Assembly: GCF_021054785.1 (NCBI RefSeq)
Contig: NZ_CP088239.1
Location: forward strand, 1,230,001 to 1,262,000
Reading direction: 5' to 3'
Length of the DNA stretch: 32,000 bases
Source: Tannockella kyphosi
Lineage (GTDB): Bacteria > Bacillota_I > Bacilli_A > Erysipelotrichales > Coprobacillaceae
Position 1 is the stretch's first letter; every line of letters starts with the position of its first letter. Position numbers and translations under genes: made by a program. The notes under the pieces were generated by a model. That model ran no database searches. It was given only the letters and a program-made list of their open reading frames with translations, and had not been told where the DNA came from. This document shows, in pieces, positions 760-32,000 of this stretch.

Positions 760-1866
760 TTAAAATGATCCTACTATTTTTGCTACAATTGGAAAAATAA
801 CTACCATTTGTTCTTCTAATAAAATAAACCCTACGTTTTCTTGATATTCGATAACTTGTTTTGTTAAATTTTCAATTCCTACTATTTGATATTTTTTTGG
901 TAATTTCTCAATATTTGTTTTCAATATTTTTTGTATTGCCAAATCATATTCTGTTTTTTGGATACTGACTATTTCATGTTCATTCTTTATCCATTTATTA
1001 TTTTTTATTAATTTCCTAATGTTTTCATTTACAATTAAACATAAATCATTCATTGTCCCAACACCTGGAATTGTTTTCTTTAAAATAGCATCTTCATCTA
1101 TTACTAGATAAGCACTTGATGAATGTACTTGCAAAGTACATGGAAATAACTTTTGGAAATCTTTTTCAATTTGATTTCGATAATTTCTAACATATTGAAA
1201 ATCCTCTTCATCACTTGTACTATAACGATAAATACCCAATGATAATAACAACTTACGATACACTCTTTGTCTACGAACAATCCCTCGATTTTCTTCTATT
1301 CCTATCCATTGTCCATAAAGAAAGTCTTCTGATTTTTGATAATCCATGATATCTGTTGTAAAATGTCTCATAAAGTAACGTGAGTTTCCTGTATTTTCAT
1401 ATAATGCATTTGCTTTTTCATCTTTTAAAAAGCCTTCTTCATCTCCATCATTTAGAATTAGTAATCCATTTTTTAGAGCAAATTTGATAACATGAATAAA
1501 TTGTCTTCTATTTTTATGAGTTTCCCAATCAATTTGATTATTTTGAAATTGAGTTTTGATGTATTCACTAATATCTAATAGTGCAAATTGTTCTTCTATT
1601 TCTTTATCTTCTAAATACATTAGAAGATAACAAAACATTTGATATTCTGTATTTGTTTGAAATTCTTGGATACCCATCCACCCTTCTCCTTTACCAGGAA
1701 TTTTTTCTAATTTGATTAGATTTTGGGTGATTATTAAGTTATAACCTATTTTTTCATATACTTTTTGTCTTATTTCTTTGCTATCATCTTTTATTTGATA
1801 ATACAGTTCGGTATTATCTTTTTTTAATACCCATCTTCTATTTAACAGTTCTTCAATTGTTTTCAT
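760..1866 (-). CDS. jetB: Wadjet JetB-like protein (TIGR02678/DUF2398-like)
   Basis: 368 aa ORF. It overlaps the upstream ORF by 4 nt (1863-1866) and ends 12 nt before the jetC start. Size and position (second gene of the quartet) fit. The family call rests on gene order and remembered family length, not on a search. Confidence 0.65.
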   Translation of the reverse strand: MKTIEELLNRRWVLKKDNTELYYQIKDDSKEIRQKVYEKIGYNLIITQNLIKLEKIPGKGEGWMGIQEFQTNTEYQMFCYLLMYLEDKEIEEQFALLDISEYIKTQFQNNQIDWETHKNRRQFIHVIKFALKNGLLILNDGDEEGFLKDEKANALYENTGNSRYFMRHFTTDIMDYQKSEDFLYGQWIGIEENRGIVRRQRVYRKLLLSLGIYRYSTSDEEDFQYVRNYRNQIEKDFQKLFPCTLQVHSSSAYLVIDEDAILKKTIPGVGTMNDLCLIVNENIRKLIKNNKWIKNEHEIVSIQKTEYDLAIQKILKTNIEKLPKKYQIVGIENLTKQVIEYQENVGFILLEEQMVVIFPIVAKIVGSF

Positions 1867-3344
1867 TTAGAATCCTCTCCAAATATAATCTTAAAGCAAG
1901 GTGTAATAAAATCACCATCACTACATTTTAAAACACATTCCCCTTCTTTTTCTTTTTCTACTCGATAAATTAATCCAGAATCTGTTTTTGCTGTTTTCGA
2001 TTTATTCGTAAGTGCTTTTGTTAGCCATGTTAAAATTATTTTTCGAGCTTCTTGACTAATTGGTGGTAAAGAAGATAAGTTTAATATATTTTCTTTTGTT
2101 AAGGTATCCATGATGTATTTTGTATGTTCCATTTGTTTTTCTAATTCTAATTTTTGCATTCTTCTTTCTAATTCAAAATCTTCTGGTGGTTTTCGATTGC
2201 TTTTTTCTTTTTGTACTCGAGTACGAACATCTAGATGTTGAAAATGTGCTGGTTCTTGGTAAACTCCACTATATATACTATCTGTTAGACGTTGACTAAT
2301 GTTTTTTAAATGTGTCGTATGTTCACTACCAAAAACAGAAGCACTTAAAATATGACAATTGTTTATTGATTCTAGTTGTTCAAACATACTTGCTATTTTC
2401 CGATATTCTTCTTTTCTATTTGCTCCATGATGATGCATTTCTCCTATGCTTAGTGCATATCTAGTTATTTTACGTATAATTTCATTTGTAATATTTTGTA
2501 AACGAACTATTTCATTTTCATCATTTTCTCCTACAAACCAACGATAAATACTTTGCCACTTTAAGTGACATTGTTCCATTAGGTCTTCTTTTAAAGGAAT
2601 AGCATCTAATCTAGGAATAGATAATTCATATGCAACAATTTGATGAAAGATTGTTTCTAATTGTTCTGGTTTTACTTTTAGTAAGCAATTTTCAATAATA
2701 TACGAATACTCTTGCATTGTTTTCACAAAAGTACGTAAATAAGTAATTAATTTATCTTTAAATTCTAAAAACTCTCTTGATTTCATCATTTCTTCTGCTT
2801 TTACACTATTTAACATAGAAATATAATCTTGATAATCTCTATTTAATCTTATAAAATCATCATTCAAACTACTCCACCAGGCACTTACTTCTACATTTGT
2901 TTTTTTATCTAAATCATGTACTTGTAAGATTTGATTTTTTATACGTTCTAATAATGTTGGTGATAACGAAGCACCTTTTGTTTCTAAGTTTTCTAAAAGA
3001 ATAGTCATACGTTCTATTTCTACACCATAAGGACTTAGTCTATAACGGTATTGACGGTTTTGAAATTCTTCTAAAGAAGCTGCTTTTGAGGTGTCTTGAA
3101 CATATAAAAGATTTCCCCACTGAGCTAATTTTTGTAAATCACTCTGGCATTTCTCCATTGTATAATCTTCAAACAAATTAGTTTCTTTTACTATATTATA
3201 TAGCTCTTCTCTATACATCCAGTATTGTAAATTTTCATACTGAGTATAAAAATAACGGACAATAATACGATATCGTTCCGTATTTTCTACATGTAAATAG
3301 GTTGTTTCTTCAATCGGTTTTAATAGTTTATCATTTATTTTCAT
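1863..3344 (-). CDS. jetA: Wadjet JetA-like protein (TIGR02677/DUF2397-like)
   Basis: 493 aa ORF with AGGAG upstream. The N-terminus YLHVENTERYRIIVRYFYTQYE resembles the conserved start of TIGR02677 proteins. It is the first gene of a tightly overlapping jetA-jetB-jetC array. Confidence 0.7.
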   Translation of the reverse strand: MKINDKLLKPIEETTYLHVENTERYRIIVRYFYTQYENLQYWMYREELYNIVKETNLFEDYTMEKCQSDLQKLAQWGNLLYVQDTSKAASLEEFQNRQYRYRLSPYGVEIERMTILLENLETKGASLSPTLLERIKNQILQVHDLDKKTNVEVSAWWSSLNDDFIRLNRDYQDYISMLNSVKAEEMMKSREFLEFKDKLITYLRTFVKTMQEYSYIIENCLLKVKPEQLETIFHQIVAYELSIPRLDAIPLKEDLMEQCHLKWQSIYRWFVGENDENEIVRLQNITNEIIRKITRYALSIGEMHHHGANRKEEYRKIASMFEQLESINNCHILSASVFGSEHTTHLKNISQRLTDSIYSGVYQEPAHFQHLDVRTRVQKEKSNRKPPEDFELERRMQKLELEKQMEHTKYIMDTLTKENILNLSSLPPISQEARKIILTWLTKALTNKSKTAKTDSGLIYRVEKEKEGECVLKCSDGDFITPCFKIIFGEDSK

Positions 3345-7320: not shown

Positions 7321-8883
7321 CTATTCTTTTAGTTCTTCAAATTTCTGTGCCATTGTAGGATTGTTTTTTGTAAGTTTTTTAATTGTTAAATCTTGTGCCT
7401 TATCATTAGCAAGTCGAAGATTATTTTCAGATGATAATAATGCTTCTTTTGTTTTTTCTAGGTGTTTAATTGTTGTTTCTATTTCTTTAATAGCTGTTTG
7501 GAATTTCTTGCTAGCTAAATCATAATTTCTACCAAACTTATCTTTAAAGTCCATCATACTATTTTCAAAATTTGCAATATCAATATTTTGATTTCTAACT
7601 TCCAGTAATTGTTCTTGATAAGCAATAGAATTTAGAGCAGCATTACGTAATAAAGTAATGATTGGTATAAAGAACTGTGGACGAATAACATACATCTTTG
7701 GATACTTATGCGACATATCAACAATTCCATTATTATATAATTCATTATCACTTTCTAGTAATGATACTAATACTGCATACTCACAACCTTTTTCATTACG
7801 ATCTTTATCTAATTCTTTTAAGAAATCTTCATTCTTTTTCTTAGTAGCTGTTGTATCATTTTCATTTTTCATTTCAAACATAATAGAAATGAATTCTACA
7901 CCACTATCACTTTTTTCTTTAAAAATATAATCTCCTTTACTACCAGTTCTAGCATCATTATCTTTTTCAAAATAAGCTTTTTGAAAACCAGTAGCTCGTA
8001 AACGATTAAATTCTATTTCACAATGTTGTTCTAATGTTTCTCCTAACATTTTAGTAGATAATTTTGTTTTTAAATCTTTATAATAATCAATTGCTTCATC
8101 TTTTTCTTTTAGTTTTATTTCATAACTATCTTTAATAGTAGTTAATTCAAGTTCTTTTCCAGTTTTCATTGATTCAATATTAGCTTGTAGTTTTGTGATT
8201 TCTATTTCTTTTTTTGATAATTCTGTATTCTTTTTAAATTCTTCTTCTTTTAAAGCCATTGTTTTATCATTTTGAGAAACTAAAATTTGTGATTTTAGAT
8301 GCTCTACTTCTTGTTTAGAAGTAGATAACATTTTTTCTAGTTCTATTTTTGCATTTGCTTCTTGGATTTTTAATTCGTTTTCTTTTTTAGCATCTGCTGA
8401 TAATATTTGGGCTTTTAGTTGTTCGATTTCTTGTTTTGCATCTGATAATGTTTTTTCTAGTTCAACTTTTGCATTTGCTTCTTGAAGTTTACGATCATTT
8501 TCTTTTTCTATTTCAAATGATTTTTGATTGTTTTGTAGTTGTTCTTGTAATCTACCGATTAGAACATCTTTTTGGACTAATTCTTCTTTTTGTTTTGATT
8601 CTTCTTGTTTTAATGCCATCACTTTATCTGTTTTAGCTAATTCAATTTGAGAACGTAATTGTTCGATTTCTTGTTTAGCAGTAGATAATGTTTTTTCTAA
8701 TTCTGCTTTTGCACTAGCTTGTGCTAGTTGCAAAGCATTGTTTTTTTCTGTTTGTAACATTTCTTCTCTTTTTAATAATTCTTTTTGGAATTCTGCATCT
8801 CGTACTTGGGCTACAATTGCAATATAACCAGATTCATCAACCGTAAATGCTTCTCCACATTTTGGACATTTTATTTCATTCAT
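7321..8883 (-). CDS. DUF2130 family protein (N-terminal zinc ribbon, long coiled coil, C-terminal nuclease-like domain)
   Basis: 520 aa. The start [20 protein letters not shown] is the typical DUF2130 opening. The central coiled coil has three paralogous segments ([23 protein letters not shown] / [23 protein letters not shown] / [23 protein letters not shown]). The C-terminal part contains GDYIFKE...FEMKNE. Confidence 0.75.
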
Positions 8884-11419: not shown

Positions 11420-12766
11420 TTACTTAATTATTAGCCAGCTACCACTTCTAGAAGATCCAACACGTTCAATCAGCCCTTTTTCTTTGAGGGATTGAAACAA
11501 ACGTTTTACTTGACGTGTACTTAGACCTAACTCTTCTCCACAATTTATTTGCTTTACATTAGCATTTTCACGAATGTAGCGTAACACCTGTTCTTCACAT
11601 TCATTTAATGTTATACCTTCATTGGTGTCATGATTGGTGACATTGGTGTCATGATTGGTGACATTTTCATCTTCAGGTAGAGATTGCATCTGTTCAAATG
11701 GTAACACTACACGGATAAAATGGTCTGAAATTTCAAAAATGCTCTTATCGTATGCTTGCAAAATACGTGTCATACCTGAACCAAGTTGTTCTACCAAGCC
11801 AACATCACGGAACACACGCATCAATTCACGGTTACGTGGCATGCTACTGCAACTAAAGAAATCTCCTTCGCTTTGTCCCATCATCAACCCACCATATGAA
11901 GTCATCACCAGTCTGTCACTAAAAATTTCAAATACTGGTGGAAATTCACGACTATAATCATTATGTACAATCGCATTAATAATTGCTTCTCGCATTGCCA
12001 ATGGATCTACCAAATTTTTATCAATTCGTTGCGTGCTAGTTATTTTTGTTCGGGTGATGTTTTCAATCTTCAGCTTGTCCAACACCGCATTGGTCGCTTT
12101 TATTAACGAGCAATAACCATATTCCTCATTCTCAATTAAATCCATCTTATCTCTTCCGGCATACTTAGCAACTTTGATAGAATTCCCATTCTCATCTGCA
12201 AGTAAGTACGCTAAATAGTTGTATTTATCCTCAGGTGTAAGAAGCTCCAAACTGCTTTCAAAGCGTTCATTTAATGTCAGTTTCTTTTCTTCATAATAGA
12301 TTTTAAGTTGAGCAAAACTTAAATCTTGACGTGGGGCAATGACACTGCGTAAGGTTGTATGGATACGTTTAGCATAAAATTCATCTATCATATTTTGTGC
12401 CATCGGTAACGAAGATGAACCAATACGCATATAACAACCACTCGGTGACATTCCTTTATTTTTAATGTAATAAGGCTTTTCCGTGCCACTACATATCACG
12501 ACCTTGACCACCACTACATTTTCAACCATTTCTGTGCGAATTTCAAACAATCCAAGTGTTACTGGTAAGATATTATTTTTAATGCGATCTGAAATTTTAA
12601 GTTGCACGTCATCAACATCTATACGGCCCACTGGGTGTCCATCATTATCTAATCCAATATAAAGCGCACCTCCCTCACGATTATTAAAAAAAGCAACCAC
12701 TTCCTTTTCCAATTTATCATTCAGTATAGATTTAAACTCTATCTTATAATTTTCTTGCAATCTCAA
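11420..12766 (-). CDS. AlbA_2/Schlafen-type DNA-binding domain + HATPase_c_4-like domain + C-terminal wHTH protein (often annotated as a RecG-like putative transcriptional regulator)
   Basis: 448 aa. N-terminus EFKS...VVAFFNNREGGALYIGLDNDG (AlbA_2). Centre AIINAIVHNDYS...RNRELMRVFRDVGLVEQLGSGMTRI (HATPase_c_4-like). C-terminus LSTRQVKRLFQSLKEKGLIERVGSSRSGSWLI (wHTH). The gene is visibly richer in G+C than its neighbours. Confidence 0.75.
   Translation of the reverse strand: MRLQENYKIEFKSILNDKLEKEVVAFFNNREGGALYIGLDNDGHPVGRIDVDDVQLKISDRIKNNILPVTLGLFEIRTEMVENVVVVKVVICSGTEKPYYIKNKGMSPSGCYMRIGSSSLPMAQNMIDEFYAKRIHTTLRSVIAPRQDLSFAQLKIYYEEKKLTLNERFESSLELLTPEDKYNYLAYLLADENGNSIKVAKYAGRDKMDLIENEEYGYCSLIKATNAVLDKLKIENITRTKITSTQRIDKNLVDPLAMREAIINAIVHNDYSREFPPVFEIFSDRLVMTSYGGLMMGQSEGDFFSCSSMPRNRELMRVFRDVGLVEQLGSGMTRILQAYDKSIFEISDHFIRVVLPFEQMQSLPEDENVTNHDTNVTNHDTNEGITLNECEEQVLRYIRENANVKQINCGEELGLSTRQVKRLFQSLKEKGLIERVGSSRSGSWLIIK
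11620..11665 (-). repeat. in-frame tandem repeat, 21 nt x 2.2, encoding NVTNHDT NVTNHDT in the linker before the wHTH
   Basis: cattggtgtcatgattggtga occurs at 11620-11640 and again at 11641-11661, followed by a partial copy. Confidence 0.9.
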
Positions 12767-12914: not shown

Positions 12915-13134
12915 TTATGTATCATTAACATGCAGTTTAGTAGCAACTCTACTTATCCTCCAGACATGATTAAATCTATAGCTAGCAATGTCTCTAGCAT
13001 TAAAATTCCATTTGCAATGCAATCATATTGTTTTTTTGAATTTCCGATGATTGCAAATCATAAGCAATATAAAAATAAATTTGTTACCTATCTAAAAATA
13101 CATTATTTATAATTTCTAGAGCGTATTTCTTCAT
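12915..13134 (-). pseudogene. decayed RelE/ParE-superfamily toxin remnant downstream of the antitoxin
   Basis: An ATG at 13134-13132 overlaps the antitoxin stop (TAATG). It reads MKKYALEIINNVFLDR then TAA. The same frame continues QIYFYIAYDLQSSEIQKNN (like the I-x-YIA-x-D block of ParE/RelE toxins) to a second stop. Another frame reads SYRFNHVWRISRV, like the C-terminal block. No intact ORF is present. Confidence 0.4.
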
Positions 13135-13448
13135 TAAAAATTAATCTCTCTAAAATTTTGAAAAGCAGCTTCTGCATTTTGTGTTTTACCTGAATACGCA
13201 TCCTTAACTCCTTGAAGCAACTTGGTATATAACTCGTCGTCTATCATAATATCAGCATTAACACTTGCTGGTGCTTTTGGTAATGTTATTGGAAATGGTA
13301 TTCCACCAGTCAATGAAATCTGATTCAAATACATATCAATAGCAGTAGACATTGGGATTCCTAATTTAGATAGAACCTCCTCTGCTTGTTTTTTTACATT
13401 TGGATCCACCCTTAAATTCAATATAACTGTTTTTTCCATAGCATTCAT
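13134..13448 (-). CDS. RelB/DinJ-family type II antitoxin
   Basis: 104 aa. LNLRVDPNVKKQAEEVLSKLGIPMSTAIDMYLNQISLTGGIPFPI is the ribbon-helix-helix DinJ signature. Confidence 0.8.
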   Translation of the reverse strand: MNAMEKTVILNLRVDPNVKKQAEEVLSKLGIPMSTAIDMYLNQISLTGGIPFPITLPKAPASVNADIMIDDELYTKLLQGVKDAYSGKTQNAEAAFQNFREINF

Positions 13449-13466: not shown

Positions 13467-13556
13467 TCATATTTCTTTTCCCTGTATACGTTTTAATGTT
13501 TTATATATCGCAAATCCTAGAATTATTGCTAGTACAATTATTAGTATAAAATCCAT
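13467..13556 (-). CDS. possible 29 aa single-TM peptide (MDFILIIVLAIILGFAIYKTLKRIQGKEI)
   Basis: Small ATG-to-TGA ORF filling the gap between the SWIM gene stop (13564) and the antitoxin start (13448). It has a hydrophobic core and a basic tail. There is no strong RBS, so coding status is uncertain. Confidence 0.25.
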   Translation of the reverse strand: MDFILIIVLAIILGFAIYKTLKRIQGKEI

Positions 13557-13563
13557 CTTTCTC

Positions 13564-15153
13564 TTAGTTCTTTATAATATTATTTAATTCATCAAACAGT
13601 GCTCTTCTAGAAGCATATTCTGATTGTTTAAGATCTTCGATAATTTCATTTACTAATACTATTCCATTATTTAATTTACTAATAGGTTTTATATAACGAC
13701 ATGCTACTTGATAATTCTTCCTACTCTTTTCTAATTTTAAGATATCATAGAACTTATTAATAAATTTAGTATATAATTCTTCTCTATAATCTTCTTCTAA
13801 AAAAGTAACATTTCGCATTAAGATATCCTCTTTTTTCATTTCAATCGCTAATTCATATAATGACTTCGGATCTTTTGTATATAGATATAGTATTTCTAAG
13901 GTGTAAATATTATATGATTTATCTTTAATAACTTTAATAGTTTCATCAAAGTTATTAAGTAACTCTAATTCTTGTAATATAGCACTACTATTAGTATATA
14001 AGAATTCATATAGTAATGCATCTTTATAGATATCTTTATTAAGTGTTAATGTATATAGTTTCATAAATATATCACTAATTGTTTGATTACGGTATAGATG
14101 TTTTTTATTTAGTAATTCTTTTGTTAACGTGTATAATTCTTCTTTATCTTCAAAATTATTTATTACATACTCTACATATTTAAGATACTTAGAGTATTTA
14201 ATTAGATTGCGTACAATCTCTTCTTTAGAATAACTATATAGTTTTGTTAGTGTTATTAAAACATTTGATTTAGGAGCAGTAGTCCTAATATTATATTGCT
14301 TTAATAACTTAAAGTATTCTTCTAATACTATTCTAAATTCTAATACATTATTATTTGTTTGTTTTTGATAAAAGTCACTAATCCAATTATAATTGTCATA
14401 CACTGTTAATTCTTTAGTAAGAAGAAGATTATCTATTTGTTTTTGAAATAGATTATTCTTATGATAATTAGAAGTTATTTGTTGCTTTTGTTGTTTGGTT
14501 AGTAACTCTTCTTGATAATATTTATAATCATAATTATAATCACTTTGCAATTCCCTTACCCTTTTAGAAATATCATCTACAATACCTTGCAGTGGATTAT
14601 TTACTAAATAATTTAAACAAGGTCCCTGTAGATACTCATAATAAGTATCTCTTGGAGTTTTTAGTAATTCTTTCTTTAATATCTCTTGTGCTTGTTTTAA
14701 CGATAAGCTCCCTACATATTCATATAATACTTCCTCAAAATAGTCTGGTTTAGTAAAACTATCCCTATAATTATATTCGTCATATTCATCATATTCATCA
14801 TATTCATCATCATATTCATCATATTCATCATCATATTCATCATATTCATCATCATATTCATGGGAATAGTCTGAAAACAACCGTTCTTCATAATCGTGTG
14901 TTTCTTCAGGATGAACACTAAAATAAAGAGCAATCATATGCTTACATATACTATGTCCATTTGCATAGGGACATGTACATGTGGATTTTCTAAGATGATT
15001 GGTATGTATTGTTACATCATATACTTGATTTCCACTACCTGCTACTAAGGCATGATATTCATAGATAGATTTTTCTTCCACTTCTCCCACCAATCCATCT
15101 ATATAGTACTCATATCCCCTACTTACTATTGCTGGTCCAGCTTGTTCTAACAT
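13564..15153 (-). CDS. SWIM zinc-finger protein with acidic D/E/Y repeat and long alpha-helical C-terminal region
   Basis: 529 aa. The start is preceded by AGGAGGA. N-terminus GYEYYIDGLV...VYDVTIH...CTCPYANGHSICKH is a CxCx8CxH SWIM finger. It is followed by a 26-residue tract of only D, E and Y (DDEYDEYDDEYDEYDDEYDEYDEYDEY), then about 380 aa of K/E/L/Y-rich helical sequence ending ...YQVACRYIKPI...EYASRRALFDELN. Confidence 0.8.
   Translation of the reverse strand: MLEQAGPAIVSRGYEYYIDGLVGEVEEKSIYEYHALVAGSGNQVYDVTIHTNHLRKSTCTCPYANGHSICKHMIALYFSVHPEETHDYEERLFSDYSHEYDDEYDEYDDEYDEYDDEYDEYDEYDEYNYRDSFTKPDYFEEVLYEYVGSLSLKQAQEILKKELLKTPRDTYYEYLQGPCLNYLVNNPLQGIVDDISKRVRELQSDYNYDYKYYQEELLTKQQKQQITSNYHKNNLFQKQIDNLLLTKELTVYDNYNWISDFYQKQTNNNVLEFRIVLEEYFKLLKQYNIRTTAPKSNVLITLTKLYSYSKEEIVRNLIKYSKYLKYVEYVINNFEDKEELYTLTKELLNKKHLYRNQTISDIFMKLYTLTLNKDIYKDALLYEFLYTNSSAILQELELLNNFDETIKVIKDKSYNIYTLEILYLYTKDPKSLYELAIEMKKEDILMRNVTFLEEDYREELYTKFINKFYDILKLEKSRKNYQVACRYIKPISKLNNGIVLVNEIIEDLKQSEYASRRALFDELNNIIKN
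14778..14870 (-). repeat. tandem catattcat(cat) repeats encoding the D/E/Y acidic tract
   Basis: Directly visible run of tcatattcatcatattcatca... units in multiples of 3 nt. Confidence 0.9.
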
Positions 15154-15162
15154 GATTTCCTC

Positions 15163-15921
15163 CTATTCCCACTCTACTTCTTCTGGGTATTCTAATTTTG
15201 GATCAGATAATTCATAGATGCTTGTTTTATATTTTTCAGCCCAATATTCAAAATTCTCTTCCATATCATAATAGATACCAGTCTTGCTAACTATTCTTTT
15301 TGTGATAATACGTAGTTTATCTTTTCTTTTAGAAACATTAGTTTTATAGTACTCAATATTACATTTATCAACAAATTGAGTTGTATATAATGTATAGTCT
15401 TCAGGATTTTTATCATAAGATCTTCTAATCTTCATAACATCTTCTTCCCCTATTACCTCTCCTATTGCTTGCCATACACTTGCAAATAAGAAATTCAGGT
15501 TTGCTACATCTAGGTAGTATTGAGTGAGTGGCACAGCTGGTAAAACATCCATTGCCTTGCCATAGTTTTCTTTGCAAAATCTATATAGTGTAGGAACACT
15601 ACAAGCTAGGAATATAATTTCCGGGAAAAATACTTCAACACTAAAATATGCATTCTTATCACTACATGTAATATCATGAAAATCTTGTAATTCTGGATAC
15701 ATATTATTATCCACAAATAAAACATTACGATCCCCTTGATACGCATGTCTTATATCATAACATAATCCTAGTAATCTCATCATCACCCCATAAGTTCTTA
15801 GATCATCTTCCGCATCATATCCTGAAAGATTATGAATACTTCTAGTTAGTTGATAAAAATCTCCATAGTCTCCTTGAATAGTTACTCCTAATAAGTTTTT
15901 TGTTGGTATTACTGATATCAT
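15163..15921 (-). CDS. hypothetical protein, first gene of the SWIM operon; no family recognised
   Basis: 252 aa ORF with GGAGAAT upstream. Its stop is 9 nt before the SWIM gene start. No motif I can assign. Confidence 0.6.
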   Translation of the reverse strand: MISVIPTKNLLGVTIQGDYGDFYQLTRSIHNLSGYDAEDDLRTYGVMMRLLGLCYDIRHAYQGDRNVLFVDNNMYPELQDFHDITCSDKNAYFSVEVFFPEIIFLACSVPTLYRFCKENYGKAMDVLPAVPLTQYYLDVANLNFLFASVWQAIGEVIGEEDVMKIRRSYDKNPEDYTLYTTQFVDKCNIEYYKTNVSKRKDKLRIITKRIVSKTGIYYDMEENFEYWAEKYKTSIYELSDPKLEYPEEVEWE

Positions 15922-16143: not shown

Positions 16144-16786
16144 TCATTCTTCATCATTTTCGTTTCGAATCAACCACACGCCATTTTTGGTAGACCCTTC
16201 TCTTTTAAGGACACCTTTTTCTTTTAGTCTATCCACATTATAGCGAACACCATTTTTACTTAAAGAAAGTAATTTTTCTAATTCATCTAACGTTATTTGT
16301 GGTTTATCAATAATTAATGAAATTATTTTCCTTTCGTTACTATTTAAATTAGGAAATATTTTTTGTGTGTTAGTTTCTATGCTAGTTTCTATGCTAGTTT
16401 CTCGAAATGATACAGTTAGTATTGTACGATCAGGAATAAACTGTTCTTCAATTAAAGGATCAATCCATAACTATATCATTTTCAACTTCATATGTTTCAA
16501 CATCACTTTCTATCAAAAGATTAATACTAATTTTTTGCAAGTTATGTGCTTGATTCCAAAATTCATCAAGTAATTTATCTTTATCTACTGATTTTAATCC
16601 AGTAGTTATCCAATTACCATCATTTTTCTCTTTTACACCTAAAATAATTACTCCACCAGATGTATTTGCCATCGCAGAGTAACTTTCCCATAATGAAGAA
16701 GGCAATCCACCAGTAGCTTTTTTCACTTCTCTTCGATTATCCTCTTTATAAGTATCAAATTTATTAATGTTAAATAATTCATACAT
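16144..16786 (-). pseudogene. internally deleted, frame-disrupted paralogue of the AlbA_2/HATPase_c_4/wHTH gene
   Basis: ORF 16460-16786 encodes only the AlbA_2 N-terminus (EVKKATGGLPSSLWESYSAMANTSGGVIILGVKE). After its TGA, another frame (16144-16470) encodes TILTVSFRETSIETSIETNTQ...ITLDELEKLLSLSKNGVRYNVDRLKEKGVLKREGSTKNGVWLI. That is the extreme C-terminus plus wHTH of the family. The roughly 250 aa central domain is missing. Confidence 0.7.
16371..16402 (-). repeat. 12 nt tandem repeat x 2.7 (tagtttctatgc) encoding ETSI-ETSI in the pre-wHTH linker
   Basis: Copies at 16371-16382 and 16383-16394, with a partial copy at 16395-16402. Confidence 0.9.
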
Positions 16787-19642: not shown

Positions 19643-21270
19643 CTACTTTCTATAATTAATATAAATAATTGGTTTTAATCCAGCCAACCTAACTTCTTTT
19701 TTCCAACCATCAATTTTATTTTTTAATAAAAGCATATCAAGTTCATTGATATTTGGAACTCCATCTTCAAGTATAGGTAATTCACCTCTATCTAATATAA
19801 TCCATATACAAACTGTGTCTATTTCAGGCATATGTGTAAGTGTTTTATGTTGATACATCTTTAAAGAAGATAATGATTGATCCACAACATAACACAAATG
19901 AGCCGATGCCTTTCCTATTTTAACTGCAAACATCGTTTTGTCTTTATACAAATCCATAAGTTCTATACTAGATGTTCCATATCGTTGCTCAATTCTATCA
20001 TAATTCTTGAACCCATTGTCACGTTCTCGTATTAAATTGAATGTTCGCTCAGCATAAAATTTACGCATCAGCTTTTGTTTTGCTTTGCTTTTAGACAAAC
20101 CAATATAATCAGCAGAATCTTTATACTCTAAATATCTTGAATTAATATAATCATCATGTATGGAAGATGAAAAATCAAACTCTGGATTATAAATTACATC
20201 AATCTCAGCTAATGATGATTTAAGATATTCTAAGTAATCATCATTGAAATGATACCATTTACCCCTCGATAAAACACAACGCTCATCCTCGTCCATATAA
20301 TCAATTATGTTAATTAGCTTATCTGTTTTTACAGAGTTGCTCATATAATAACTAATAATATTAACTTTTTCAAAAGCACTTGCTAGGTCCAACTCACAAT
20401 TTTGAGCAAATTTTTTGAAGTCATCAAAAGTAATATTGTCTACACTCATCTCGTTTTGACCTCGCTTTAGAGTAAATTTGTAATCTGTATTATTAAATAT
20501 CTCCGTTGTTCCGATTATATCAAATTCTGAAAAAGCTACATTTAACTCGTCTTCAGTTGCGCATTTAATTAATTTAGAATATAACAAATCTATATATTCT
20601 TTATCTGTCACTTTGCAAAAAACTGGTATTTTATAAATATCAGCTTTGTTTATAATAATATTTTCAACAAATGATATGGTATCAACTATATTATCTAATT
20701 TATCTTCTTTCAGATTAAATTTAATAGAATGTCCAAGTTCTATATTAGGATCAAACAAAGCAAATTTTTTAGGAATATCTAATTTACCTTTTATTTTAGA
20801 AAACGCTTCTCCACTATTAAATTCTAATTCTGAATAATCAATATATGTGTTTACTGTTTTATTTCTCTTAGATGTAGGCGCTATTAGCGTGTTGTTTTAA
20901 TTTCTTTAAACTTATGTTTTCTAGCAAAACCAAAAGCAAAATCTGTATCACAGTATTTGTCTACTGTAAAAAATGAAAATCCAAATGTACAGGCATATAT
21001 GACATCTTTACTTTGTAACACTAGTACACTTTTAGGATTAGAACGATTAGTGTAATCTTCTTCACCAAAAGCATTTAACAACCATTGCCATTCCACTAAA
21101 TTGTCTTTTTGTTCAAAACTAATATATAACGAAAGAATATATGTTACACTTCCTGTCCCTATATTTCTTGAAATCGTCAGTTCATCTGATGGTGCATATT
21201 TGCTTTCCAATTCTTCTAAAAAGTCTTCCATTTTCAATTTATCAATTTTATATAAATTAAGTTGTCCCAT
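19643..21270 (-). pseudogene. frameshifted TIGR04141/DUF6119-like gene (sporadically distributed family), split into 128 aa and about 413 aa frames
   Basis: ORF 20884-21270 (MGQLNLYKI...VIYACTFGFSFFTVDKYCDTDFAFGFARK...) looks like the N-terminus of the family. The frame of ORF 19643-20758 is actually open up to 20896, so it overlaps the end of the first ORF in another frame. One indel near the A4 run at 20895-20898 would fuse them into about 540 aa. The C-terminal block ELMDLYKDKTMFAVKIGKASAHLCYVVDQSLSSL resembles the conserved core of that family as I remember it. Confidence 0.55.
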
Positions 21271-24715: not shown

Positions 24716-25462
24716 CTATCTTAATAATCTCTCTGCTTTTTCCATCCCTAAAGGAGAAATGTAGCACTTATCTAAAGAGTATTCAATTAGTCTATTCTTG
24801 TGTAAATCCCAAAGTTGTTTTTTAAATGTTGTTGAATTACTATATTCAATTGATGATTGCAATTCCTCTGCAGTTTGTGAGTCTTTGATATATAAAAGAC
24901 ATAAAACTTTATCTTTGGTGCTCATCTTTGCATCTAAAATTCTTAAGGTACTTCCTGTATCCCAAACAATGGAAGTTTCCTTACACATGATGCCATTTAT
25001 TATTTCTTCTGTCTCTTCAAACGTTTTAGTTGAAACTAATCTATAAAACTCTGCCAAAACCCATTTAGCATTGTATAGTAGCAAAGATGCATCCATCTTA
25101 TTAGGGTCTATATGATTTTTATGAATCATTCCTCTCTTGTTTCTAATACAATACATGCTATAAAGAACTCTTGGTATTATTATTCTATATTCTTCTTGTT
25201 TTGATGGTACATTTTCATAGATAATTAAAGCTTTTTCATTAAAAATCGATAATTTATCTGTTAATGATGTAAATTCACCGTGCAACTGATATTCTATCAA
25301 GCGTCTTGAAGTTTCAATAAACTGCCCCATTTCGTTGCCTGTATATTGCCAATTGCACTTTTTAAATTCAATTAAAGCATTTTCATAACTTGTTAACAAG
25401 TACAGTACTAACTCTTCTGGATAAACCGTTTTCAGCACTTGTTCAACGCTATTTATTTGCAC
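24716..25462 (-). CDS. uncharacterised protein embedded in the R-M operon: HEPN-like helical domain (Rx6H) plus C-terminal winged helix
   Basis: 248 aa. It overlaps the upstream ORF by 14 nt and ends 17 nt before hsdR. The motif YCIRNKRGMIHKNHIDP fits the HEPN Rx4-6H pattern inside a predicted all-helical region. The C-terminal KDKVLCLLYIKDSQTAEELQSSIEYSNSTTFKKQLWDLHKNRLIEY...ISPLGMEKAERLL looks like a MarR-type wHTH. Confidence 0.5.
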   Translation of the reverse strand: MQINSVEQVLKTVYPEELVLYLLTSYENALIEFKKCNWQYTGNEMGQFIETSRRLIEYQLHGEFTSLTDKLSIFNEKALIIYENVPSKQEEYRIIIPRVLYSMYCIRNKRGMIHKNHIDPNKMDASLLLYNAKWVLAEFYRLVSTKTFEETEEIINGIMCKETSIVWDTGSTLRILDAKMSTKDKVLCLLYIKDSQTAEELQSSIEYSNSTTFKKQLWDLHKNRLIEYSLDKCYISPLGMEKAERLLR

Positions 25463-26018
25463 TTAGCATTTCCTCTAACAAATTGACAGCCGCTTCCTCA
25501 CCAGGTTGAGTTAACTCTATTGTCCATTTTCTTCCCTGTCCTTTTTTAATTATGTTAGTTTTCTCTTTATTGAAAATAGCTGCAAAATTGGAAGAATCAT
25601 AACAATTATGTTTTTCACACAAAGAGATAATCTCCTTCCCTTCGATTTTTATTTTTCTTATATGTAGCACAATCAACGCAATATTTTTAATCTTTGTGGC
25701 ATCATTATTTCCTGGTATTTTTTTCAGTATAGATATACTACCATCTTCACTATCAATGTGATATATCCCTCCTTCTATATATTTATCACTCATGTTTAAT
25801 ACTGGTGTGATTTTTTGCTCTATAGCTGAGTTTTCACAGTCAGAATTCATCTTTATTTGATTTTCATGTGGTTGAGTCAGCTGCACAATACTACTGTTTT
25901 TCTCAACAAATGAAAATACATCACCCATGTTTTTCTCAACAAAAATTTCTGAGCCTTGTATACTAAAACTACCTTGTGATAAATTAATTGTAATACTTGC
26001 ATTTTTAATTTCTTCCAT
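25449..26018 (-). CDS. uncharacterised small protein embedded in the R-M operon
   Basis: 189 aa. It starts 15 nt after the hsdS stop. No recognisable catalytic motif. The C-terminal part (EIISLCEKHNCYDSSNFAAIFNKEKTNIIKKGQGRKWTIELTQPGEEAAVNLL) has a wHTH-like pattern. Confidence 0.5.
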   Translation of the reverse strand: MEEIKNASITINLSQGSFSIQGSEIFVEKNMGDVFSFVEKNSSIVQLTQPHENQIKMNSDCENSAIEQKITPVLNMSDKYIEGGIYHIDSEDGSISILKKIPGNNDATKIKNIALIVLHIRKIKIEGKEIISLCEKHNCYDSSNFAAIFNKEKTNIIKKGQGRKWTIELTQPGEEAAVNLLEEMLSANK

Positions 26019-30008: not shown

Positions 30009-30431
30009 TATCTTTTTCAGGACGGTAATAATGATTATTTTTTTAATAGCATTAACTTTATAGCCTTCAAAACAGTTAATAAAGATGCCCTTGCTACAAA
30101 TAACTCTCCACAAATCAAATTCCTCCCTTCTAATGAAAACGACAATTATACCATGGCAGTTATGCAAATCAACGCAGAATTCTCCAGAATAAAAGAAGAT
30201 GAATTAAAAAAATCATCTTCCACAAAAATTACCAAAGAAATTACCAAAGAAATTACCAAAGAAATTAAAAAACACATGAAAAATAACCCTGAAATCACTG
30301 CGAAGGAATTAGCCATTCTTTGTGAAACTAATCAAGATACAATTCAGTATCGCATAAAAATTATGCGTACGAATAAGGAAATTAAGAGAGTCGGTTCCAC
30401 TAAATCCGGATATTGGGTAGTGTTAAAATAA
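30009..30431 (+). pseudogene. C-terminal fragment (end of HATPase_c_4-like domain plus wHTH) of a third AlbA_2-family gene; the longest ATG ORF is 30153-30431
   Basis: The frame is open from 30009. It ends AKELAILCETNQDTIQYRIKIMRTNKEIKRVGSTKSGYWVV, the same wHTH and STK-x-G-x-W ending as the two other copies. There is no AlbA_2 N-terminal domain upstream. Confidence 0.55.
30226..30267 (+). repeat. 12 nt tandem repeat x 3.5 (aaattaccaaag) encoding (K)ITKE-ITKE-ITKE in the pre-wHTH linker
   Basis: Copies at 30226-30237, 30238-30249 and 30250-30261, then a partial copy. Confidence 0.9.
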
Positions 30432-30870: not shown

Positions 30871-31410
30871 CTATTTCCATTCATGCATTTTTGTTTCTAA
30901 TAATTCAAAATCACAATAAGCAAACAATTTATTTCCTGTTTTCTTTTGATAGCGAATTATACTCTTAGTTTTATTTATAATTGTTTCTTTTTTTCTTAGA
31001 CAAAATTCATATTCTTTCGCAAGTAAATCTCGATCTTTATGTTTTCTTATATCAATTTCAAAAAAGCTCCCATCAGGAACTGGAATCGATTTTCTAAAAT
31101 CAATAACTGATATTAATTTTTTAATTTGATTATTAGGTGATTTTATGTAGATATCTTTTTCATGCAATTCATCACAACTGATGGTTTCAAAAACAATCAT
31201 ATAATCTTTACCTGTGTTTTTTAGCTTTAAATGTTTAGGTTTTGCTGAAGTTAATGGAATAAAATAATTTAATCCATTATCATATACAATTATTCCAACG
31301 TATGGTTTATTTTCATAGTCGTGTCTTCTCTTATTTAGATAAACTTCACTATCAAATGAATTAAGATACTTAATATATTTTATATCAATCGTATTAATTT
31401 CATATTTCCT
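30871..31410 (-). CDS. toxN: ToxN/AbiQ-family type III toxin (endoribonuclease) homologue lacking a canonical start codon; possibly a pseudogene
   Basis: The frame is open from 31434 to the stop at 30871. The translation (R)KYEINTIDIKYIKYLNSFDSEVYLN...KPYVGIIVYDNGLNYFIPLTSAKPKHLKLKN... parallels the remembered N-terminus of AbiQ/ToxN (MKFYTI..KYIEYLKEFD...FIGIV...YLAPLTSPK). The codon aligned to the Met is AGG (31410-31408). The first in-frame ATG is at 31200, which gives the 109 aa track ORF. Confidence 0.6.
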   Translation of the reverse strand, partial: RKYEINTIDIKYIKYLNSFDSEVYLNKRRHDYENKPYVGIIVYDNGLNYFIPLTSAKPKHLKLKNTGKDYMIVFETISCDELHEKDIYIKSPNNQIKKLISVIDFRKSIPVPDGSFFEIDIRKHKDRDLLAKEYEFCLRKKETIINKTKSIIRYQKKTGNKLFAYCDFELLETKMHEWK

Positions 31411-31674: not shown

Positions 31675-32000
31675 TTATTCAAATTCAATCGTACCTGGAG
31701 GTTTACTAGTAAGATCATACATTACTCTATTTACACCACGTACTTCATTAATAATTCTAGACATTACTTTATTTAAGATTTCATAAGGGATTTCTGCAGA
31801 TTCTGCAGTCATGAAATCAATAGTATTTACAGCACGTAAAGCTACTGCATAATCATATGTTCTCTCATCACCCATAACTCCTACTGAACGCATGTTTGTA
31901 AGAGCTGCAAAATATTGACCAATACTTCTATCAATACCTGCTTTAGCAATTTCTTCTCTATAAATGAAGTCTGCTTCTTGAACCATTTTTACTTTTTCTT
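31675..32000 (-). CDS. guaA: GMP synthase (glutamine-hydrolysing), C-terminal end; the gene continues beyond the window
   Basis: ...[82 protein letters not shown] is the highly conserved GuaA C-terminus (dimerisation domain, terminal TSKPPxTIEWE-type ending). The frame is open to position 32000. Confidence 0.92.

Follow-up and report, generated by a model that had tools for sequence, protein, structure and literature searches.

The question raised by two closely spaced genes in Tannockella kyphosi is whether they make up a defense system or have come to stand side by side by accident. They lie in a 32,000-nt stretch of contig NZ_CP088239.1 (RefSeq assembly GCF_021054785.1, positions 1,230,001 to 1,262,000), referred to here as the window and numbered from its first letter. 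The upstream gene encodes a DUF6904-family protein, and the downstream one a protein with a SWIM zinc finger, an acidic linker and an alpha-helical solenoid, called here the SWIM-solenoid protein. An initial annotation, made from the DNA alone, saw in the pair a candidate stand-alone module against phages or other mobile genetic elements. The best explanation found is instead a juxtaposition peculiar to this lineage, of two accessory genes that are distributed independently, in a decaying island next to guaA; this is probably correct. The pair consists of the following:

15921..15163, minus strand: DUF6904-family gene, upstream member of the pair (252-aa open reading frame, ORF)
15153..13564, minus strand: SWIM / acidic linker / alpha-solenoid gene (529-aa ORF)
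15151..15168, minus strand: gene junction, with TAG stop codon, AGGAGGA ribosome-binding site and ATG of the SWIM gene (read directly from the sequence)

The two ORFs are indeed, as first described, 9 nt apart with a strong AGGAGGA ribosome-binding site, and both are on the minus strand. The junction reads TAG-GAGGAAATC-ATG, and the Shine-Dalgarno sequence of the SWIM gene overlaps the TAG of the DUF6904 gene. A promoter and terminator scan found neither a terminator-like nor a strong promoter-like site between them, in AT-rich DNA where such a scan is uninformative (promoter-like sites were fewer than in shuffled sequences, and there was one, unrelated, terminator-like site); the GC profile shows no clear boundary on either side of the pair. 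The DUF6904 gene and the start of the SWIM gene are common to three metagenome contigs (L102, L103, and L104) from strains ~99% identical to this one. In this T. kyphosi strain the two genes are probably co-transcribed, because they happened to become adjacent.

Neighborhoods were compared from both sides. For DUF6904, 80 loci were taken from species-representative genomes, 74 of them with a downstream and 71 with an upstream neighbor; for the SWIM-solenoid family, the sample was 26 loci, comprising seven distinct full-length homologues (14 stored loci, 127 kb) and 19 full-length metagenome loci. A hidden Markov model of the SWIM N-terminal domain matched three of the 848 ORFs in the DUF6904 loci. 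A SWIM gene is directly downstream of DUF6904 in two of the 74: in Absicoccus (L022), where it encodes a 1251-aa SWIM-SNF2_assoc-SNF2 helicase, and in Breznakia (L046), where the 554-aa product has only the SWIM domain in common with the window family. The third SWIM-domain ORF (L032) is 5 kb from DUF6904. From the other side, no DUF6904 gene was found near a full-length SWIM-solenoid homologue (0/26 loci). Clustering and Pfam scans of the 71 upstream and 74 downstream neighbors gave no recurrent DUF6904 partner: AAA_14/DUF4143, ATPase_2/DUF234, Schlafen/AlbA_2, Abi_2, AbiH, SEC-C, and GNAT proteins all occur, as do ordinary metabolic and housekeeping genes. By neighbor-joining, the SWIM-adjacent DUF6904 genes (window, L022, and L046) are scattered through the tree and do not form a clade. 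Absence of co-occurrence, the outcome that the initial annotation had itself named as refuting a module, is essentially what was found (2/74 in one direction, 0/26 in the other, and no clade): DUF6904 and the SWIM gene are not a conserved two-gene system.

If the locus is a juxtaposition, the SWIM-solenoid protein would work independently of DUF6904, as a non-enzymatic adaptor or sensor, with SWIM domain and solenoid binding a ligand, either a protein or a nucleic acid. Between them, the polyanionic linker could be a flexible tether, or else a competing or autoinhibitory pseudo-ligand, and the gene would travel as accessory cargo of variable islands. Several observations weigh against this reading. 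The 9-nt spacing, the ribosome-binding site overlapping the stop codon, and retention of the arrangement in three further strains would also fit a functional operon. A same-strand SWIM gene is immediately downstream of DUF6904 in two of the 74 loci and in the window, while the domain occurs in only one of the ~620 other ORFs of those loci (~0.16%); DUF6904-to-SWIM adjacency is thus above simple random expectation, with a rough P of about 0.01, a weak residual signal. Within the protein, neither the N-terminal nor the C-terminal domain departs much from neutral charge, and there is therefore no obvious basic partner surface for electrostatic autoinhibition by the linker.

The same evidence bears on the possibility that the pair is a true two-gene defense or anti-mobile-element module, one protein acting as effector and the other as sensor (either way around), with SWIM partners swapped between lineages. 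The tight, operon-like junction would suit such a module, as would the defense-island context and the three independent DUF6904-to-SWIM adjacencies, each with a different SWIM architecture (window, L022, and L046); conserved polar residues of DUF6904 (R58, H59, D64, R65, and D185) could form an active site. However, 72 of the 74 DUF6904 loci have no SWIM neighbor and all 26 SWIM loci lack DUF6904, the adjacent cases share no clade, each gene is evidently kept alone, and beyond the SWIM domain neither protein matches a system in PADLOC. A module of this kind is distinctly unlikely. A more specific version, in which DUF6904 serves the SWIM domain as its dedicated partner, placed three times independently and directly upstream of different SWIM architectures in a modular sensor-effector conflict system whose D/E/Y linker gates the SWIM domain by mimicking nucleic acid, is very unlikely.

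What kind of protein is each partner? The 252-aa protein, which had appeared to match nothing, belongs over its full length to a catalogued family, Pfam DUF6904 (PF21845): residues 2-251 align with profile positions 1-238 of 238 (E=1.6e-59, 202 bits against a cut-off of 27), and over its sequence there is 100% identity with WP_249028571.1, a T. kyphosi “DUF6904 family protein” for which the records searched give no gene position. Nothing sets it apart from the rest of the family, whose invariants it carries: a CYDIRHAxxGDR motif, P100, D185, and a C-terminal W. There are at least 209 homologues across the Bacillota, including Lachnospiraceae, Clostridia, Bacillaceae, and Erysipelotrichaceae. 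An alpha/beta fold plus a helical bundle is confidently predicted by an AlphaFold2 (AF2) model (predicted local distance difference test score, pLDDT, 90.6; predicted template modeling score 0.88). This model has no Foldseek match at E<=0.001 in the PDB or in BFVD (viral predicted structures); PDB sequence profiles gave insignificant matches only, and NCBIfam and PHROGs scans nothing. Relatives are absent from the viral contigs scanned (IMG/VR), a plasmid search was likewise empty, and DUF6904 is not mentioned in any paper found by a literature search. Widespread in Bacillota and set in highly variable neighborhoods, DUF6904 is an accessory gene that stands alone.

Among the closest relatives of the window DUF6904 gene, three have an AlbA_2/HATPase_c_4-type gene directly upstream (L006:660-2231, L007:3-566, and L010:1750-2226), the position occupied in the window by a decayed AlbA_2-type gene. 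Acquisition of AlbA_2 and DUF6904 as a unit was considered and rejected at the sequence level: the window relic has no detectable similarity to the L006 AlbA_2 gene, and the four copies have diverged too far for common descent to be shown.

The SWIM-solenoid protein can be divided as follows, with the DNA repeat that encodes part of its linker:

14878..15153, minus strand: N-terminal SWIM domain, residues 1-92 (Pfam SWIM at residues 45-79; AF2)
14761..14877, minus strand: acidic linker, predicted to be disordered, residues 93-131 (net charge -21; pLDDT <50 at residues 94-131)
14773-14859, minus strand: pure D/E/Y run, residues 99-127 (29 residues: 11 D, 9 E, and 9 Y)
14786..14861, no strand assigned: perfect tandem DNA repeat coding for (DEY-DDEY)n (Tandem Repeats Finder: 21-nt unit x3.6, 100% matches, score 152)
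13567..14760, minus strand: predicted C-terminal all-alpha solenoid, residues 132-529 (AF2; no Pfam domain)

Both ends of the protein are much as they had been described. The “textbook” SWIM finger at residues 59-72, CTCPYANGHSICKH, passes the Pfam cut-off (PF04434, E=2e-5, 24.4 bits against 19.6), and its putative zinc ligands, C59, C61, C70, and H72 (encoded at 14938-14979), are invariant in 20 homologues. In an AF2 model built on a 20-sequence alignment (mean pLDDT 85), the SWIM domain is predicted to run helix, strands, zinc knuckle, helix; the ~380 aa of “helical-repeat-like” sequence becomes an all-helical solenoid of ~21 helices over residues 139-529, with pLDDT mostly >85. The solenoid carries a conserved PKSNVLI motif at residues 294-300, in which K295, S296, N297, L299, and I300 are invariant. 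Foldseek searches with it against the PDB gave weak TPR/ARM/HEAT-like matches, the best at E=0.016 and none at E<=0.001. No enzymatic domain was detected in the protein by Pfam, NCBIfam, PADLOC, PHROGs, PDB sequence search or Foldseek.

Full-length homologues are 500-550 aa long and 24-40% identical to the window protein. Among 1.8 billion representatives they make up ~30 full-length clusters when grouped at 50% identity; the exact 529-aa protein has no entry in the protein collection, and the non-repetitive C-terminal region used as a query matched only one homologue, a limit of the word index. As far as sequence comparison goes, the SWIM / D/E/Y linker / solenoid architecture is confined to a small family of gut Bacilli.

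The linker contains a pure D/E/Y run, as first noted, although this is 29 rather than 26 residues long; it is encoded by a tandem repeat, but the best unit is not 9/15 nt but 21 nt, made up of DEY (9 nt) and DDEY (12 nt) and present in 3.6 copies. Because the repeat is perfect, in-frame length change is plausible. The acidic tract had been singled out as an unusual feature, but an acidic linker is present in all 20 aligned family members, with 28-57 residues, 60-76% D/E/Y, and a net charge of -10 to -25. In these alignments the linker is a conserved family feature, kept in composition and variable in length, and in the AF2 model of the window protein it is predicted to be disordered; a DNA-mimic role for it is speculation. 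The repeat also affects assembly: three contigs from independent short-read assemblies (L102:3636-3966, L103:1881-2179, and L104:903-1202) stop exactly where it begins, so that many metagenome “short SWIM proteins” are probably truncated gene calls.

The combination of a SWIM domain with an acidic segment after it recurs in many Bacillota proteins with other C-terminal domains, for example PRiA4_ORF3, and in short proteins such as those of S. aureus (WP_000523659.1, 157 aa) and Butyrivibrio plasmid pCY186 (WP_013283121.1, 142 aa). A 157-aa S. aureus “SWIM zinc finger family protein” gene (L100:4995-5468, NZ_CP077866.1) is located between opp-type ABC transporter genes on one side and a HAD hydrolase gene and femAB on the other. 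In view of this core-like context, there is no intrinsic tie between the SWIM-acidic module and islands.

Where, then, are the genes for full-length SWIM-solenoid proteins found? Known defense-type genes in the family's loci include AbiE, DpnII restriction-modification, Fic, MqsA/SocA, cas, RloB, AAA_14/DUF4143, and DUF6119, and housekeeping contexts also occur. The SWIM gene follows Fic in L099, and MqsA/SocA near cas4/1/2 in L095; in other loci it comes after AAA_14/DUF4143, after RloB, or near DUF6119; in L086 it is alone between ilv/leu and RpiR-PTS genes, a housekeeping context. An intact 580-aa DUF6119 gene is found ~650 nt upstream of the SWIM-family gene in L123 (L123:3598-5340). A link between DUF6119 and SWIM was considered and not upheld: the recurrence (window and L123) is at the family level only, the two copies having no detectable sequence similarity.

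The most frequent companion is a large serine recombinase, present in the same element at 11 of the 26 loci. In 10 of these 11 it is 15-42 nt upstream of the SWIM gene on the same strand (L088, L089, L093, and seven further metagenome loci, where the SWIM gene is preceded by the same recombinase lineage as in L088 and L093). In L088 (4755-7002) and L093 (3991-5992), a 2.2-kb unit, including a 58-aa ORF that overlaps the recombinase gene, is placed exactly between the stop codon of Fic and the start codon of SWIM; L099 (2971-3010), collinear in other respects, lacks it. The eleventh case, L098:2453-8037 (ENA ERZ28018825 k141_1597060), has a recombinase of a separate lineage (27% identity). Here cotJC, a sporulation gene (Mn_catalase), is interrupted exactly at DIGTEE|LAHLEM by an element of ~5 kb. 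The element has a 51-aa ORF, the large serine recombinase, AbiEi, AbiEii, and, last, the SWIM-solenoid gene, which ends in a stop codon ~12 nt short of the right junction. It resembles a sporulation-gene intervening element that is small, is not a phage, and bears defense cargo. Since relatives are found at the edges of large-serine-recombinase elements with AbiE, restriction-modification or Fic cargo, a conflict-related role for the family is plausible, if unproven. No recombinase or recombinase remnant was found in the window, and a literature search turned up no paper pairing “SWIM zinc finger” with “serine recombinase.”

These loci suggest another possibility: the SWIM-solenoid protein might serve large serine recombinases as an accessory factor, such as a recombination directionality factor or a partner at the target site or in regulation, and the window copy would have been left over after loss of the recombinase. 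Beyond the 11 loci and the close spacing in 10 of them, the recombinases belong to two unrelated lineages, those of L088, L089, and L093 have diverged in step with their SWIM neighbors, and in L098 the element that splits cotJC includes the SWIM gene, which adjoins the element's right end. SWIM domains also occur in MULE transposases and the Shu complex, which counts in favor of the idea. So does the fact that known recombination directionality factors have neither a common fold nor synteny (PMC12286644); by the criteria of that paper, such a factor binds the DBD2/coiled-coil of the recombinase and switches directionality. On the other hand, there are intact family members without a recombinase, namely the window, L086, L095, L099, and ~12 metagenome loci. 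The clean insertion of the 2.2-kb recombinase unit between Fic and SWIM in L088 as compared with L099 suggests that the SWIM gene is a neighbor or a target rather than part of the unit. The 51-58 aa ORF overlapping the recombinase start would be a more conventional candidate for a directionality factor. Known directionality factors are much smaller than the SWIM-solenoid protein. A recombinase accessory factor is thus an improbable identity for it.

The recombinases could also be incidental. The SWIM-solenoid protein might be an ordinary, housekeeping-like chromosomal regulator or adaptor whose gene flanks an integration hotspot, the association with islands and recombinases arising from an attachment site (attB) at its 5′ end and not from a conflict function. 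In L088, L089, L093, and L099 a position downstream of ffh is conserved, with variable cargo in between; the context of L086 is fully housekeeping; and the related short SWIM-acidic protein of S. aureus is encoded among core genes (opp and femAB). SWIM-solenoid relatives were not found in viral contigs (IMG/VR) or PHROGs, and plasmids yielded short SWIM-domain proteins only, which also counts for this reading. The L098 gene, however, is unambiguously within a mobile element, the window copy is in a decayed accessory island, and the family has few, patchily distributed, and strongly diverged members, whose contexts differ at nearly every locus. Like the two-gene module and the recombinase accessory factor, this alternative is unlikely.

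The juxtaposition reading places the pair in an accessory island, and the surroundings do have that character. The other features of the window relevant here are:

31675-31986: 3′ end of guaA, next to which the island lies
30871-31200, minus strand: fragment of ToxN (type III toxin), matching the profile only over its C-terminal half
24716-26018, minus strand: two overlapping ORFs (248 and 189 aa) between hsdR and hsdS, without a Pfam match
19643-21270, minus strand: DUF6119 gene split into two ORFs
16168..16786, minus strand: decayed gene of AlbA_2 type, upstream of DUF6904 (16460-16786 is its N-terminal fragment, Pfam SLFN_AlbA_2 E=2.7e-9)
13467-13556, minus strand: 29-aa hydrophobic ORF, MDFILIIVLAIILGFAIYKTLKRIQGKEI (one predicted membrane helix and a basic tail)
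13134..13448, minus strand: orphan RelB antitoxin gene downstream of SWIM (context only; Pfam RelB E=2.4e-9)
760-3344, minus strand: DUF2397 and DUF2398 genes at the left edge

From guaA leftwards the order is the ToxN fragment, a Fic-helix-turn-helix gene, and a type I restriction-modification system (HsdM, HsdS, two ORFs, and HsdR); then the split DUF6119 gene, an element with DUF6431 and an ISL3 transposase, the decayed AlbA_2 gene, and the DUF6904/SWIM pair; then the 29-aa hydrophobic ORF, the orphan RelB gene, and an intact AlbA_2/HATPase_c_4 gene. The leftmost part has genes for hydrolases, YARHG, DUF2130, GGDEF, and a solute-binding protein, and DUF2397/DUF2398; the last two are Wadjet JetA/JetB, with the remaining system presumably beyond the window. 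These surroundings are a true accessory island, rich in defense genes and decaying, and the description of the pair as lying in an accessory stretch between a toxin-antitoxin relic and a decayed AlbA_2 gene with an insertion sequence holds (orphan RelB, AlbA_2 relic, and ISL3).

The AlbA_2 relic, whose C-terminal remnant is at 16168-16347 (tblastn, C-terminal helix-turn-helix region), is also present in the strains represented by L102 and L103. No toxin-sized ORF was found downstream of RelB. The 29-aa ORF, which starts 7 nt past the SWIM stop codon and ahead of the orphan RelB gene, could be a small membrane peptide, a toxin-like ORF, or a chance occurrence. Near the ToxN fragment there is a perfect 12-nt x3.5 repeat (30226-30267); Rfam detected no ToxI-like RNA in the window. 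Two further coding repeats were noted: a perfect 21-nt x2.2 repeat (TNHDTNV) at 11620-11665 in the intact AlbA_2 gene, and a 120-nt x1.9 repeat at 8281-8507 in the DUF2130 gene.

The proposal of a two-gene defense system does not hold up, and prioritizing the pair as such is not warranted. Of more interest is the uncharacterized family with SWIM domain, polyanionic linker, and solenoid, in which linker composition is kept despite only 24-40% identity and, in the window, is encoded by a perfect, slippage-prone repeat. That its members are repeatedly found beside or inside recombinase elements makes the family relevant to the study of recombinase accessory factors or of small-island cargo. DUF6904 is itself a widespread accessory protein of the Bacillota, with a confident model that has no known fold relative.

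How do these proteins compare with known systems? As a SWIM zinc finger (PF04434; Makarova, Aravind and Koonin, 2002, as cited in PMC7736814), the window domain is typical in its CxCx8CxH pattern, invariant ligands, and strand/helix context, but it is N-terminal, and is followed by a D/E/Y-rich linker, predicted to be disordered, and an unannotated solenoid. An N-terminal SWIM domain is shared with the bacterial SWIM-SNF2 helicases (YwqA-like, with SNF2_assoc PF08455 and SNF2 PF00176), but neither the window protein nor the adjoining genes have an SNF2_assoc, SNF2, or helicase domain. The absence of an SNF2 gene next to the pair, remarked on from the start, is thus real, the sole helicase within the window being the type I HsdR. 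The short SWIM-acidic proteins of Bacillota are closer, with ~42% identity over residues 1-88 and then an acidic segment, but lack the 400-residue solenoid.

Among defense systems, the PADLOC model PDC-S62 matches the window protein (E=6e-9), but only over profile positions 16-96 of 566, the N-terminal SWIM region; the other ~470 positions are unmatched in it and in all relatives tested. The PDC-S62 matches of short SWIM-acidic proteins, including that of S. aureus, are equal to or better than that of the window protein. Membership in PDC-S62 was therefore rejected: what is shared is the SWIM domain, and a protein from a core context matches equally. Since the SWIM-acidic module extends to that S. 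aureus protein, PADLOC matches confined to the SWIM domain are poor evidence of a defense function. PDC-S62 is not mentioned in any paper found by the literature search. A phage- or plasmid-borne anti-defense (DNA-mimic) protein was also considered and rejected: relatives are absent from IMG/VR and PHROGs, and plasmids gave only short SWIM matches.

In retron type XIII, a winged-helix protein whose SWIM domain is C-terminal is accompanied by HEAT/ARM-repeat proteins (Mestre et al., 2020, PMC7736814). The window locus likewise combines a SWIM finger with predicted alpha-helical repeats in a defense-associated setting, but here the SWIM domain is N-terminal and fused to the solenoid, and the PADLOC SWIM_XIII model has no match. 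No reverse transcriptase was found among the window ORFs scanned, and no Rfam family reached its gathering score in the 32 kb; the retron type XIII arrangement is thereby excluded. The only SWIM-containing match in the PDB is eukaryotic ZSWIM8, a cullin-ligase substrate receptor (9rwz), in which a SWIM domain also precedes a long alpha-solenoid, but the match is non-significant (E=0.1 by sequence and E=0.12 by Foldseek) and the T. kyphosi locus has no cullin or ubiquitin machinery.

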